From sequence record OL615012: 64,000 nucleotides of DNA; one strand, written 5' to 3'. This DNA comes from Shigella phage vB_SboM_Phaginator. Below, piece after piece: positions 29,594 through 40,065 of the stretch. Position 1 is the stretch's first letter. Each line of letters begins with the position of its first letter. A program made the position numbers and the translations under genes. The notes beneath the pieces are model-generated. The model was not told the origin of the DNA. It ran no database searches and saw only the letters and a program-made list of their open reading frames with translations.

Positions 29594-30172
29594 TTAGGAA
29601 TTACGGGCTGCATTAGCAACGGCGTAAGCGTACTGGACATTAGCGTCTTTAAACGTACCTTTAGAGGTATCTATTTCTGCCTTAAAGCCGCCTTTAGCCA
29701 TAACATCGGCAAATTCTTTACGGAAAGCCATTGCATCAAGACCTTTCCATGATGATTTATGCTTGGCAAATTCAAGACCAGCGTAGTTGACAGCCTTAGC
29801 TAATTTATTATCAATAACCCATTTACCGGCTTTAGGCACAAACTTCGGGCCTTTTTGTTTAGAGAACAGTTTTAAATTCCAGCGACGAAGGTCACTGTCG
29901 GCTTTAACAAAAGCTGCGTCTAAGTTACTAGCAACAACATCTTCAATATGAGCAAATTTAAGTCCGTCAACTTCAATATTTAGATCGTTACGCCAGCGAA
30001 GTCCTTCCCAAGCGAAGGCTTTAAAGTCGGAAGCCTTTGTAGCTAAGTACCGTTCAATAGGAGCTGTTTTAGGGTCAAAGCCGTTTCCCGATCGGTAGGT
30101 CCACTCATCTTTATTAATGCCTTTGGCCTTTACTATAGAAGCTTCGGCAATAAATTCTTGATAGGTTTTCAT
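29594..30172 (-). CDS. ipIII: Internal head protein with capsid targeting sequence (IPIII-like)
   Basis: 192 aa; N-terminus MKTYQEFIAEA, the T4 internal-protein capsid targeting sequence with LxE-type protease site; early promoter upstream. Confidence 0.65.
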   Translation of the reverse strand: MKTYQEFIAEASIVKAKGINKDEWTYRSGNGFDPKTAPIERYLATKASDFKAFAWEGLRWRNDLNIEVDGLKFAHIEDVVASNLDAAFVKADSDLRRWNLKLFSKQKGPKFVPKAGKWVIDNKLAKAVNYAGLEFAKHKSSWKGLDAMAFRKEFADVMAKGGFKAEIDTSKGTFKDANVQYAYAVANAARNS

Positions 30173-30200
30173 GTGTTTCCTTGTTTGTTTTGATAGAGTA

Positions 30201-30229
30201 ATTATACCATATTAATACTTAAGCGTAAA
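30201..30229 (-). promoter_or_regulatory. Early promoter upstream of ipIII-like gene
   Basis: Minus strand GTTTACG - 17 bp - TGgTATAAT. Confidence 0.6.
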
Positions 30230-30233
30230 CCGT

Positions 30234-30494
30234 TTAAGCTTTACCGCCAGAAATAATTCCGAAGTTGTTAAAATCATATCCAATATCGTCAACATCTACT
30301 TTAGGACTTGCTACAGCATAAGCAATTTCACTACGTTTTGCACAGGTGTTGATTTCTTTACCATCGCCACCTAAGAAAGAATACCCATTACGTTTTAATG
30401 AGCCAAAGTCTTCCGCATCACCAATGAAAGCTTTAACTTTAAATTTAGAACCTTTGGCATCTGCTTCAACGATAAATTCTTGATACATTTTCAT
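30234..30494 (-). CDS. Internal head protein with capsid targeting sequence (IPII-position)
   Basis: 86 aa; N-terminus MKMYQEFIVEA. Confidence 0.6.
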   Translation of the reverse strand: MKMYQEFIVEADAKGSKFKVKAFIGDAEDFGSLKRNGYSFLGGDGKEINTCAKRSEIAYAVASPKVDVDDIGYDFNNFGIISGGKA

Positions 30495-30631
30495 TTTTCC
30501 TTAGTAAATTGATTTACCAAAGTATTTGTACCAAGTCGGACGTTGATCAATTTTTTCATCTAAGCGTGCTTGATTTATCGCAATGGACGCTTCGGACGGG
30601 TCATAATTTCCTCCAAGTAGTTGATGAATGT

Positions 30632-30660
30632 ATAGTATCAAAACCCTTGGAGGAAGTAAA
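30632..30660 (-). promoter_or_regulatory. Early promoter upstream of ipII-position gene
   Basis: Minus strand GTTTACT - 17 bp - TGaTACTAT. Confidence 0.55.
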
Positions 30661-30662
30661 CA

Positions 30663-30944
30663 CTATTTTTCTGAAGCGCCTGAAATATATTTTTCAAGAC
30701 GTTGTTTCATTAGCGAGCCGTTCTTAGCGATTTCTTCTGGTTTATCGCACATACGCAACAAGGCTTCAAGCTTAACGATATCGCTGGTACGTTCAAATTT
30801 GCGAGTATCTATCTTACTAGCAAGTTCAGAAATACGTGCTAATAGACTTTCAGCTTCAACCAAAGCTGCACCTAGCTTAGTTGCAAATGTGTCAGTAGCT
30901 TCGTTAAGAATAGATTCTGATAAAAATTCACTATATGTTTTCAT
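30663..30944 (-). CDS. Internal-protein-like protein with capsid targeting sequence
   Basis: Track ORF 98 aa; start taken at [16 protein letters not shown] (93 aa). Confidence 0.55.
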
Positions 30945-31429
30945 ATATACGCTTTCCAAGTTCCTGTTTTAAATGTTGAGATTACGCGTTTCGCGCGATT
31001 AGGTGTCTGACGATACCATTTAGATTGGGCTAGATTTACTGCTGCTTCATCCCAGCGTTTTTGTTGGAGCATACGTAAAGAATTAGTAAATCCTGCCACG
31101 CCGGTTTCTCCCATTTGGAAGACCATATTAATCAATGCACAGCGACGAACCGCATCAAGAGAATCATAAACCGGTTTTAATTTAGCATTTCTCAGAATTC
31201 CGCGAACAGCAGCATCAACATCCTGATTAAAGAGTTTTTCAGCCTCATCTTTTGTAATTACACCATTGCAATTACGCCCAATAGCTTTGTCTAATTCAGA
31301 TTTAGCAACATTAAGTGATGGACTTTTGGTAAGCAAATGACCAATGCCAATAGTGTAATAGCCTTCGGTGTCTTTATAGATTTTAAGTCTAAGACCTTCA
31401 TCTATACGTAACATTTCAAATATATTCAT
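30941..31429 (-). CDS. e: Lysozyme (endolysin) e
   Basis: 162 aa; [33 protein letters not shown]... near-identical to T4 lysozyme with a few substitutions and shorter C-terminus; two late promoters upstream. Confidence 0.95.
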
Positions 31430-31442
31430 AATACCTCCTAAG

Positions 31443-31463
31443 TATTTATAGAAGGTATTTATA
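31443..31463 (-). promoter_or_regulatory. Two tandem late promoters (TATAAATA) upstream of lysozyme e
   Basis: Minus-strand TATAAATA at 31443-31450 and 31456-31463 between nudE and e. Confidence 0.7.
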
Positions 31464-31465
31464 AA

Positions 31466-38168: not shown

Positions 38169-38169
38169 G

Positions 38170-38242
38170 CTGGGAATAAAGGACTCGAACCTTTGCATCC
38201 TGGAATCAAAATCCAGTGCCTTACCAACTTGGCTAATTCCCA
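38170..38242 (-). tRNA. tRNA-Gln (anticodon TTG), CCA not encoded
   Basis: Manual cloverleaf: acceptor TGGGAAT/ATTCCCA, anticodon stem CTGGA/TCCAG, loop TTTTGAT, T-arm AAAGG-TTCGAGT-CCTTT; 1-nt spacer to tRNA-Leu (dimeric precursor as in T4 Gln-Leu). Confidence 0.8.
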
Positions 38243-38311
38243 ATTATTAACAAAGGCTCTCAAGCAAGAACCCTTGATGATAGAGGGTATTAATCAGTGC
38301 GGTATGAGTTA

Positions 38312-38338
38312 ATAATAACAAATAATTCTTAAAGCAAA
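38312..38338 (-). promoter_or_regulatory. Putative MotA-dependent middle promoter upstream of the tRNA cluster
   Basis: Minus strand TTTGCTTTA box - 12 nt - TATTAT, about 70 nt upstream of tRNA-Gln. Confidence 0.3.
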
Positions 38339-38844
38339 TTAAACATTTTAACAGTCGGCAAAACAATTTCTTTTTCTATATAAGAGTATTTAACACTCTC
38401 AACTACACGCAAAAAATCATAATCATAATACTCAGAAGCACTGCCTAAAATATTAATAAGTCCTTCAAGCACTTTATTACCATTCACAAAGAATAAGTCA
38501 AATACACGTTCTTCGTCTTCTTCGGATTTATTACCAAGGTCAACTTCTATGTCAAAGACCTTTTTAATGAATTCTGGATAAAGTTGTTCTGAGAACAGTC
38601 CTTCAACCAAGTATTCATAAATAAAAAGCGATTGCTCGCTGAACAAGCCATTACCACAATAACGTTCAGCTTTAGTACTAGAATGTCTGCTTTTAAACTT
38701 CTTTAAAAGATATTGGAATTGTAAGATTTCATGCTCTTCTACGCCAAACAGTGTTTTAGTTTTATAGTTGTCACCATCATTTTCCCAGGTAGTGACATCA
38801 ATTACGTAACCCTGTGGAATTGTAGTACCTAAACAAATATTCAT
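38329..38844 (-). CDS. Hypothetical protein
   Basis: ORF track 171 aa. Confidence 0.5.
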   Translation of the reverse strand: MNICLGTTIPQGYVIDVTTWENDGDNYKTKTLFGVEEHEILQFQYLLKKFKSRHSSTKAERYCGNGLFSEQSLFIYEYLVEGLFSEQLYPEFIKKVFDIEVDLGNKSEEDEERVFDLFFVNGNKVLEGLINILGSASEYYDYDFLRVVESVKYSYIEKEIVLPTVKMFNLL

Positions 38845-38847
38845 TTT

Positions 38848-39138
38848 TCACCACGCTGCATTAATATACGTTTTCTGAATACATTCAAGACCCAAAGGAT
38901 TCTTGAAAATATCATATTCAAGAGGACCTTTTTCTGTTTCAATAAAGAAATCAAAATTTACTGTATTAAATTTATGGTCTTCCTTCACTAATTTAACTTG
39001 AGAAGATGAACGGTCAACATAAACCTTTTCAACTTCAAAACATGTTAAAACACCATAATCATCAATCAAGGCTTTAGCCGCGTCTTGATCATATTTATAT
39101 CCATTTTCAATTGATGATACTTTAGCATAAAGAATCAT
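38848..39138 (-). CDS. Hypothetical protein
   Basis: ORF track 96 aa. Confidence 0.5.
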   Translation of the reverse strand: MILYAKVSSIENGYKYDQDAAKALIDDYGVLTCFEVEKVYVDRSSSQVKLVKEDHKFNTVNFDFFIETEKGPLEYDIFKNPLGLECIQKTYINAAW

Positions 39139-39141
39139 TAT

Positions 39142-39531
39142 TTACCCTTCATCAACAATAGTATGAGTGTGGGCATTTACAATTTGCCACCAATCAAAGC
39201 GATTAGAACCATACATTGGTTTGTTCTCATTTTCTTTGATAAGGTCACGGAGTTCATCTTCGGTAGCGGCTTTCGCGATTAAATCAGCATATCCACCGCG
39301 AGGATAATAATTATCACCTGCAAAAAGTAAAAAGTTTGCTTTAATATTATTAAACTTTTCAAGAGTAATAACTGTTCCACCAGGTTGAACAATCTCTACA
39401 TATTTATATCCTAATTTTTGAGCAGCATCTACTGCTTCAAGCAGGGTATCATGAGCCCATCCAACTTGGCAATCTGGCTTTTCAGATGGATTAGCCTGAT
39501 AATCCGCGTACACTTTATACATTCTATTCAC
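39142..39531 (-). CDS. Hypothetical protein
   Basis: ORF track 129 aa. Confidence 0.5.
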   Translation of the reverse strand: MNRMYKVYADYQANPSEKPDCQVGWAHDTLLEAVDAAQKLGYKYVEIVQPGGTVITLEKFNNIKANFLLFAGDNYYPRGGYADLIAKAATEDELRDLIKENENKPMYGSNRFDWWQIVNAHTHTIVDEG

Positions 39532-39766
39532 CTTTAGAAATTTTATCCATAACGATAGCGATTAAACCAATTAAAAATGCTACTACAAGCGAAAACACAT
39601 TTTCTGCTGTAGTTAATAATCCGCATATAAATCCAACAAACATTGAAAAACTAAAAGCGGAAGCAGAAATTGCAATAGCAACATTTCGAATTAATTCACA
39701 GCGTTTCATTTTATTCTCCAATTTCACATTTGCTTTGATAGAACTACTATAACATAGTTCTATCAA
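39524..39766 (-). CDS. Hypothetical small membrane protein
   Basis: 80 aa with hydrophobic core segments. Confidence 0.45.
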   Translation of the reverse strand: MIELCYSSSIKANVKLENKMKRCELIRNVAIAISASAFSFSMFVGFICGLLTTAENVFSLVVAFLIGLIAIVMDKISKGE

Positions 39767-39777
39767 GTTGTAAACTA

Positions 39778-40065
39778 TTATAGAAGATTTTTTGCAATAA
39801 TTTTAAGCTGAGCTACTGAAATATGCTTGGCTTTAAACAAAGCAGTTTCTTCAGCAGGAGAGATAACGATTGTAGCACCATCCTTTTTAGCAGACCACCC
39901 ATCACCTAGGTAAACAGTACCTTTGATTTCTTCGCCATCAACCAGACTAATCATTGGTTTACCTTCTCGTCCTTTATTTGCTTTAATAACTTCAGAAGTA
40001 AGAGTAGCTTCGGTAATAGTAGAAACCGGGGTAGTTGTAGAAGTAAATTCTTTGAAAGTTTTCAT
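39778..40065 (-). CDS. ipI: Internal head protein at the ipI locus (capsid-targeted; IPI-type proteins inhibit GmrSD-like restriction)
   Basis: 95 aa; N-terminus MKTFKEFTS... with ITE/TSE sites; located just upstream of 57B as ipI is in T4; early promoter at 40096-40124. Confidence 0.6.
   Translation of the reverse strand: MKTFKEFTSTTTPVSTITEATLTSEVIKANKGREGKPMISLVDGEEIKGTVYLGDGWSAKKDGATIVISPAEETALFKAKHISVAQLKIIAKNLL

Follow-up and report, generated by a model that had tools for sequence, protein, structure and literature searches.

Six genes with T4-type capsid targeting sequences in Shigella phage vB_SboM_Phaginator

The six genes and their shared N-terminus

We have analysed a stretch of 64,000 nucleotides of Shigella phage vB_SboM_Phaginator (sequence record OL615012; the whole stretch is called the window in the following, and positions refer to it unless another record is named) with respect to six open reading frames (ORFs), here designated A to F, that begin like the internal proteins (IPs) of phage T4. 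The window is collinear with T4-like coliphages (Tequatrovirus), the top records covering 80–90% of the region 29000–41600 with 94–96% identity, and its genes follow the T4 order: vs.6–vs.8, the lysozyme gene e, nudE, e.2–e.8, the tRNA cluster (nine tRNAs in the window), trna.2–trna.4, ipI, 57B, 57A, and gene 1. A, B, and C are found beside e and F between trna.4 and 57B, which are the two recognised internal-protein gene (ip) loci and the same as in T4; D and E are situated between e.8 and the gene of tRNA-Arg. The exact sequences of all six proteins are present in public records, and five of the six (A, B, D, F, and a longer call of C) are filed under accessions of Shigella phage vB_SboM_Phaginator. 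We suggest that the six ORFs are the ip gene set of this T4-like phage and that their products are packaged, injected, and directed against restriction, a reading to which we assign a probability of about 0.82.

A scan of all six frames of the window (starts ATG, GTG, and TTG; at least 40 amino acids; pattern ^MK[TSM][YF].[EQ]F) yielded exactly six ORFs beginning with MK[TSM][YF]x[EQ]F, all of them on the minus strand. The back-translated DNA pattern ATGAARNNNTWYNNNSARTTY occurs six times in the window, compared with a mean of 0.10 (standard deviation 0.30, maximum 1) in 100 dinucleotide-preserving shuffles of the window, none of which reached six. Scan and shuffle statistics thus confirm an earlier note on this DNA, which had placed six ORFs with starts of the T4 targeting type at these positions. 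Residue 4 is tyrosine or phenylalanine and residue 7 is phenylalanine in all six ORFs. The prohead-protease sites of the LxE type that had been noted are also present: A to E have [LI]-x-E at residues 8–10 followed by alanine or serine, and F has I-T-E/A at residues 17–19 (the slash marks the cut), giving the known 76-residue protein IPI*. The tag and its (L/I)xE context are the same as in the T4 IPs, and the interpretation of the N-termini as the T4 capsid targeting sequence (CTS) is borne out by A and F, which are direct orthologues of IPIII and IPI (94% and 98% identity, respectively). The CTS is said to have been defined by Mullaney and Black in 1996.

The mean pairwise nucleotide identity of the six ORFs is 67% in codons 1–11 and only 30% in the 60 nucleotides upstream as well as in codons 12–31. 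The regions upstream of the ORFs do not align between the copies, and the codons of the tag show synonymous differences. Since the identity is limited to codons 1–11, with unrelated flanks and synonymously different codons, the shared N-terminus is a selected peptide, and the objection raised in the earlier note, that the tag could be merely shared leader or ribosome-binding-site DNA, falls away. Among the bodies of the six ORFs BLASTP found no match below E = 0.3. The bodies are therefore unrelated in pairwise comparison, as had been claimed, but this statement has to be qualified for D and E, since each of them has a full-length match to PHROG 2280.

In the homologous T4 locus three matches to the pattern are found, in line with the three such genes that the note had ascribed to T4. 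Over the homologous stretch of ∼13 kb the counts are three in T4, T2, and AR1, four in RB14, five in 235Ecol030PP, and seven in UFV13. As related phages carry three to seven tagged genes, six are not unusual. One of the seven genes of vB_EcoM-UFV13 (locus L007) is gp124 (1482–1796 of that locus, minus strand), which codes for 104 amino acids beginning with MKTYKEFIAES, is labelled hypothetical protein, and matches phrog_3966 of unknown function. It lies between ipIII and the homologue of B and is another unlabelled CTS-bearing gene.

The idea of such a gene family is not new, since polymorphic ip genes sharing only the CTS were described in 1994: as far as the study of Repoila, Tetart, Bouet and Krisch (EMBO J 13:4181) is reported in PMC12373910, at least ten ip genes were recognised by their signal sequence. 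The T-even IPs have likewise been characterised as a diverse set of defence proteins that share the CTS alone (PMC3012670). The genes described here resemble the polymorphic T-even ip genes (ip4 to at least ip10; cited after PMC12373910 and PMC4122927) in being unrelated small proteins which have only the CTS in common and which are swapped among close relatives.

Genes A, B, C, and F at the recognised loci

Gene A (29594–30172, minus strand) is the ipIII orthologue. It codes for 192 amino acids with the CTS MKTYQEFIAE/A, the identity to T4 IPIII extends over all 192 residues, and it matches phrog_5341 (internal virion protein) with 1e-117; the predicted mature protein has 182 amino acids and a pI of 9.65. 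A candidate sigma70-like promoter of the T4 early type is located upstream of A (30201–30229, minus strand; TTTACG-17-TATAAT with TG extension), identified solely by its agreement with the consensus at 10/12 positions.

Gene B (30234–30494, minus strand) codes for 86 amino acids with the CTS MKMYQEFIVE/A, and the predicted mature protein has 76 amino acids and a pI of 6.4. It has matches in 216 phage records, in some RefSeq records under the name internal head protein. B matches phrog_2667 (2e-18), a family also matched by T2 Ip7, which would make it a weak relative of the Ip7 family. Two other assignments were rejected: B is not the orthologue of T4 ipII, as only the CTS matches T4 IPII and IPIII, and it is not Ip6, as its PHROG differs from that of T6 Ip6. 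A T4 ipII orthologue was not found anywhere in the window. In a protein clustering at 90% identity B (86 amino acids) was grouped with DenV proteins of 137 amino acids without visible sequence similarity, which may be an artefact of the clustering.

Gene C (30663–30944, minus strand; 93 amino acids) is a paralogue of the Ip5 family with 48% identity to Ip5 of T2 and AR1 over 84 amino acids, and it matches phrog_3499 (1e-46), the same family as T2 Ip5. Its tag is predicted to be cut before Ser11, and a second LNE/A site follows at residue 15. Copies with an identity of 99% or more are found in 132 phage records, RefSeq gives the name internal head protein, and RB69ORF127c is the counterpart of C. 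The start codon of C and the stop codon of e, the lysozyme gene (30941–31429, minus strand), overlap in the sequence ATGA. By motif search two T4 late-promoter motifs TATAAATA were found upstream of e (31443–31463, minus strand), and transcripts starting there could read through into C, B, and A.

Gene F (39778–40065, minus strand; 95 amino acids) is the ipI orthologue and matches Pfam PF11634 (IPI_T4) with 5.4e-52 over residues 20–95; the cut at ITE/A after residue 19 would release the 76-residue IPI*. A candidate sigma70-like promoter precedes F (40096–40124, minus strand; TTTACA-17-TACTAT with TG extension; 9/12, again a consensus match only). Directly upstream of ipI is 57B (40138–40593, minus strand), which one record labels anti-CBASS protein Acb1; with this annotation two anti-defence genes are adjacent.

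In comparison with T4 the window has four further tagged genes and lacks ipII. The order is e–C–denV remnant–B–A instead of e–ipIII–ipII–denV. The C-terminal remnant of denV, the gene of endonuclease V, is located between C and B (30504–30629, minus strand) and corresponds to residues 96–137 of T4 DenV with 74% identity. There is no intact denV in the window, while vB_EcoM-UFV13 has an intact denV at the same position.

Genes D and E at the rnaC terminator

Between e.8 and tRNA-Arg T4 has only the small RNAs rnaC and rnaD. Homologues of both are present in the window between tRNA-Arg and E (rnaC at 36571–36709, 98% identity to T4; rnaD at 36718–36832, 86% identity; both minus strand), and no Rfam family detects them. 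E and D together form a 1.2-kb insertion relative to T4, which departs exactly at the rnaC terminator and returns to collinearity at 35278. On the minus strand the insertion reads as follows: the stem–loop of the rnaC terminator at its proximal edge (36497–36520), the canonical T4 late-promoter motif TATAAATA (36483–36490) 44 nucleotides upstream of the start codon of E, gene E (35973–36446), a copy of the stem–loop (35943–35966; 92% identity over 39 nucleotides to 36484–36522), the motif GATAAATA (35890–35897), gene D (35289–35855), and a terminator-like stem–loop at the distal edge (35260–35278). The three stem–loops were identified by a terminator scan. The motif GATAAATA differs from the late promoter by one mismatch and lies 42 nucleotides upstream of the start of D, a spacing like that before E, and may be a late promoter as well. 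The canonical late promoter in front of E fits a protein that is required at head assembly.

This arrangement is reminiscent of the PeSL (Arbiol et al. 2010; Comeau et al. 2014, PMC4122927), in which a stem–loop is followed by a sigma70-like early promoter, a Shine–Dalgarno sequence, and the start codon, and which mediates modular shuffling in T4-like phages (PMC4122927). As there, single genes are bracketed by repeated stem–loops and appear as a clean indel against a close relative. Unlike in a PeSL, the stem–loop before E leads to the late motif and not to the defining sigma70-like early promoter. The consensus scan reported no early-type promoter match before E, so the arrangement falls outside the PeSL definition. 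We suggest that it works like a PeSL without being one by definition, and that the repertoire may be shuffled as single-gene cassettes, E and D each being followed by its own copy of the terminator stem–loop. Relatives indeed differ at this site: D alone is present in RB14, E alone in AR1, both in UFV13, and neither in T4, T2, T6, and PST. 235Ecol030PP (locus L002, 6928–7263, minus strand) has an E of 111 amino acids which is truncated by a frameshift, diverges after residue 94, and is labelled hypothetical protein. Truncated forms of E and D in further records (P0051, P0043, P0108) suggest that these genes are often lost or decaying.

D codes for 188 amino acids with the CTS MKTYAEFLTE/A, and the predicted mature protein of 178 amino acids (pI 9.5) starts at Ala11 (AAKLPSEADLTK). 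It has a match in 164 phage records, all but one at least 95% identical, and all 40 of the matches listed are annotated as hypothetical or not at all. D corresponds to RB14ORF136 and Shfl2p135 (hypothetical protein). E codes for 157 amino acids with the CTS MKSYAQFLNE/A and a second LNE/A site at residue 15, and its predicted mature form has 147 amino acids and a pI of 9.5. It has a match in 511 phage records, again hypothetical or unannotated in all those listed, and corresponds to AR1_137. The family phrog_2280, which both match, carries the label unknown function. Although ip genes had been named in RB14 and AR1, the curators kept the label hypothetical for D in the former and conserved hypothetical for E in the latter. 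A literature search by the locus names of C and D gave no proteomic data (the name of E was not part of this search).

HMMER, run in full against 1.84 billion representatives, revealed a single distant relative of D (P0115; 31% identity), which starts with MITFNEFLNES and is found on a contig with a T4 30.3-like gene. Relatives of E with 39–42% overall identity occur in Yersinia and Klebsiella T4-like phages and begin with MLEYSEFLKEL or MKFKEFLAEA; they have kept the CTS-like start and the N-domain, whereas the C-terminal half is different. In A to E residues 4, 7, 8, and 10 are an aromatic residue, phenylalanine, isoleucine or leucine, and glutamate, and they are kept in the distant homologues of D (P0115) and E (P0109, P0110). 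It is known from experiments that residues 4 and 7 govern targeting and residues 8 and 10 processing (PMC9026906).

These observations bear on the question whether the CTS-like start of D and E is a relic or a recombination joint, that is whether the first ∼30 nucleotides were acquired from an ip gene by illegitimate exchange and the products are not packaged. Shuffling at conserved short sequences has been documented in the hyperplastic regions of T4-like phages (PMC4122927), and D and E, labelled hypothetical only, stand apart from the classical ip loci, as would be expected in this case. However, the tag including the four mapped positions has been retained at 31% identity in the D family and at 39–42% in the E family while the nucleotides diverged, a cleavage site follows in every case, and E has a late promoter. 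Retention of the mapped positions, the cleavage site, and the late promoter argue that the tag is not a relic, and we regard this explanation as highly improbable.

The AlphaFold2 model of D is of low confidence (pLDDT 61; tag ∼55) and consists of a helical N-domain, a disordered linker (residues 77–96), and a long helical hairpin; its confidence is too low for a fold search. For E the confidence is moderate (pLDDT 72.5; tag 41), and a three-helix N-domain (18–71), a linker, and a helical hairpin (88–155) are predicted. Both models thus have the same layout of a poorly predicted tag, a small helical N-domain, a linker rich in proline and lysine, and a long helical hairpin. For the E model, Foldseek searches of BFVD and PDB returned nothing but members of the family of E and generic helical bundles (E above 0.6). 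Pfam yielded no match for B, C, and E, and its matches for D were sub-threshold; in sequence searches of NCBIfam and PDB no significant match to D or E appeared, and PDB returned nothing for IPIII either. When the relation of D and E was examined, neither BLASTP of the bodies nor hhalign of the two family alignments (probability 11.5%) revealed one, and D with P0115 reached 2.5% in hhalign against the E-type proteins of Klebsiella and Yersinia, yet both D and E match PHROG 2280. By PHROG neither D nor E matches any of Ip1–Ip7 (Ip8–Ip10 were outside this comparison), and in a direct comparison of E with T2 Ip4, Ip5, and Ip7 and with the T4 IPs the tag alone matches. An identification of E as Ip4, which has the same length of 157 amino acids, was therefore rejected.

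Proposed role of the six proteins

The following pathway can be proposed. The CTS of ∼10 residues would dock the protein by its aromatic residue 4 and Phe7 to the scaffolding core during prohead assembly, as established for T4 IPIII. The protease gp21 would then cut after Glu10 (Glu19 in IPI) at (L/I)-x-E, which is established for T4 IPI and IPIII; in the six proteins the sites are present. The mature proteins would remain in the head with the DNA and be injected together with it, as in T4, and would finally bind and block GmrSD-family type IV enzymes of the host that attack glucosyl-hydroxymethylcytosine DNA. From their orthology F (IPI) is expected to inhibit the CT596-type GmrS/GmrD, and A (IPIII) is expected to inhibit the ECOR17-type two-gene GmrSD; B, C, D, and E would be further tagged cargo with other GmrSD variants as the most likely targets. 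The inhibition of GmrSD by IPs was reportedly studied by Bair and Black in 2007 and by Rifat et al. in 2008.

That all six proteins are loaded by the CTS, trimmed by gp21, and injected appears very probable to us. By orthology this is nearly certain for A and F; as a prediction from the sequence there is a strong case for C and a good one for B, D, and E. Similarly, there is good support for the role against type IV enzymes in A and F, where the mode of action of the GmrSD inhibitors Ip1–Ip3 is likely. It is the default hypothesis for B to E, which show no similarity to Ip1–Ip3 beyond the tag. Ip1, Ip2, and Ip3 each block one distinct GmrSD variant without cross-protection (Silas et al. 2025, PMC12373910), so that Ip2 and Ip3 are now known as inhibitors beside IPI*, a point missed by the earlier note. 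Its proposal that the extra members are candidate injected anti-defence effectors agrees with the accepted view in the literature (PMC3012670, PMC12373910).

Several observations weigh against this reading. The ip4–10 genes of T4-like phages did not give reproducible inhibition across 15 GmrSD groups (PMC12373910). Because of this negative screen an anti-GmrSD role of the IPs not found in T4 is unproven, and the default hypothesis for B to E is weakened. Packaging, cleavage, and injection of B to E are deduced from ∼10 residues. D and E lie outside both recognised ip loci and have no internal-protein label in any record seen, although location in a recognised locus is not strictly a defining property of CTS-targeted internal proteins. 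The predicted mature forms of A, D, E, and F are basic (pI 9.0–9.65) like the T4 IPs, but those of B and C are near neutral (pI 6.3–6.4). Finally, F has no late-promoter motif within 200 nucleotides, and the motif TATAAATA is common in the AT-rich window (14 copies).

B to E might be packaged by means of the CTS and yet have a mainly structural or physical function, such as neutralising the charge of the DNA, forming part of the assembly core, or aiding ejection. The T4 head contains ∼360–370 copies of each of IPI, IPII, and IPIII, and IPIII mutants assemble heads at about half the rate with a burst of ∼40% of normal (PMC9026906). Internal proteins touch the phosphates of the DNA through lysines (PMC3012670), D and E have a basic pI and 24–32 lysine and arginine residues, and the lack of reproducible anti-GmrSD activity of ip4–10 would also be consistent with such a function. 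On the other hand, all three T4 IPs, including IPIII, have specific GmrSD targets (PMC12373910), and B and C lack the basic character. Between close relatives the unrelated bodies turn over fast, with three to seven genes per phage in different sets. This rapid turnover of unrelated bodies is better explained by an arms race than by a conserved structural role, and we consider the latter improbable.

The extra members could also be injected effectors against defences other than GmrSD or against other host processes, for instance by ADP-ribosylation (compare Alt), the CTS serving as a general delivery tag. Foreign proteins fused to the CTS are indeed packaged and delivered (PMC9026906), the negative ip4–10 screen would be expected under this explanation, and the E family of Klebsiella and Yersinia phages has swapped C-terminal halves. 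In addition, the distant relative of D adjoins an ADP-ribosyltransferase of the ART-PolyVal type (144 amino acids) in a T4-like metagenomic contig (Logan SRR28624380, locus L005; 1419–2033 and 2092–2526, plus strand). Both proteins begin with MITF(N/K)(E/Q)FLNES, the ADP-ribosyltransferase with MITFKQFLNES, which suggests a small CTS-tagged ADP-ribosyltransferase in a more distant T4-like phage. Nevertheless, GmrSD is the target of all three IPs for which one is known (PMC12373910), and no enzyme domain was detected in D and E and no fold match in the search with the E model, which makes this explanation doubtful for the extra members.

We tentatively put forward, as a possibility, that the gap between e.8 and tRNA-Arg is a third hotspot of ip genes in Tequatrovirus and related phages which curated annotation has overlooked, and that D and E are packaged and injected effectors with a two-domain helical structure and with targets beyond the GmrSD enzymes tested so far. 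The swapped C-terminal halves of the E family in Klebsiella and Yersinia phages would be interchangeable modules for target recognition on a constant N-domain.

The interpretation of the six tagged genes in the earlier note matches current knowledge without going further. Since the class of proteins and its logic are already established, the window adds little conceptually, and the new content is modest: D and E, together with gp124 of UFV13, are unlabelled candidate members, and the e.8–tRNA gap is a candidate third ip locus. Of practical value is that two widespread hypothetical genes can be given the label of candidate internal proteins and included in screens for anti-restriction activity, and that a simple N-terminal pattern finds unlabelled members such as gp124 as well as members beyond the two usually inspected loci, as in the case of D and E. 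As IPs act before any phage gene is expressed, they help to decide which wild strains a T4-like phage infects, and this role in host range is relevant to the choice of therapeutic phages.

A further difference to relatives concerns the tRNA cluster, which is interrupted between tRNA-Ser and tRNA-Gly by an ORF for a homing endonuclease of the GIY-YIG seg type (216 amino acids; 37348–37998, minus strand). Its counterpart in AR1 is labelled segD, and T4 and 235Ecol030PP have segB at another tRNA junction.

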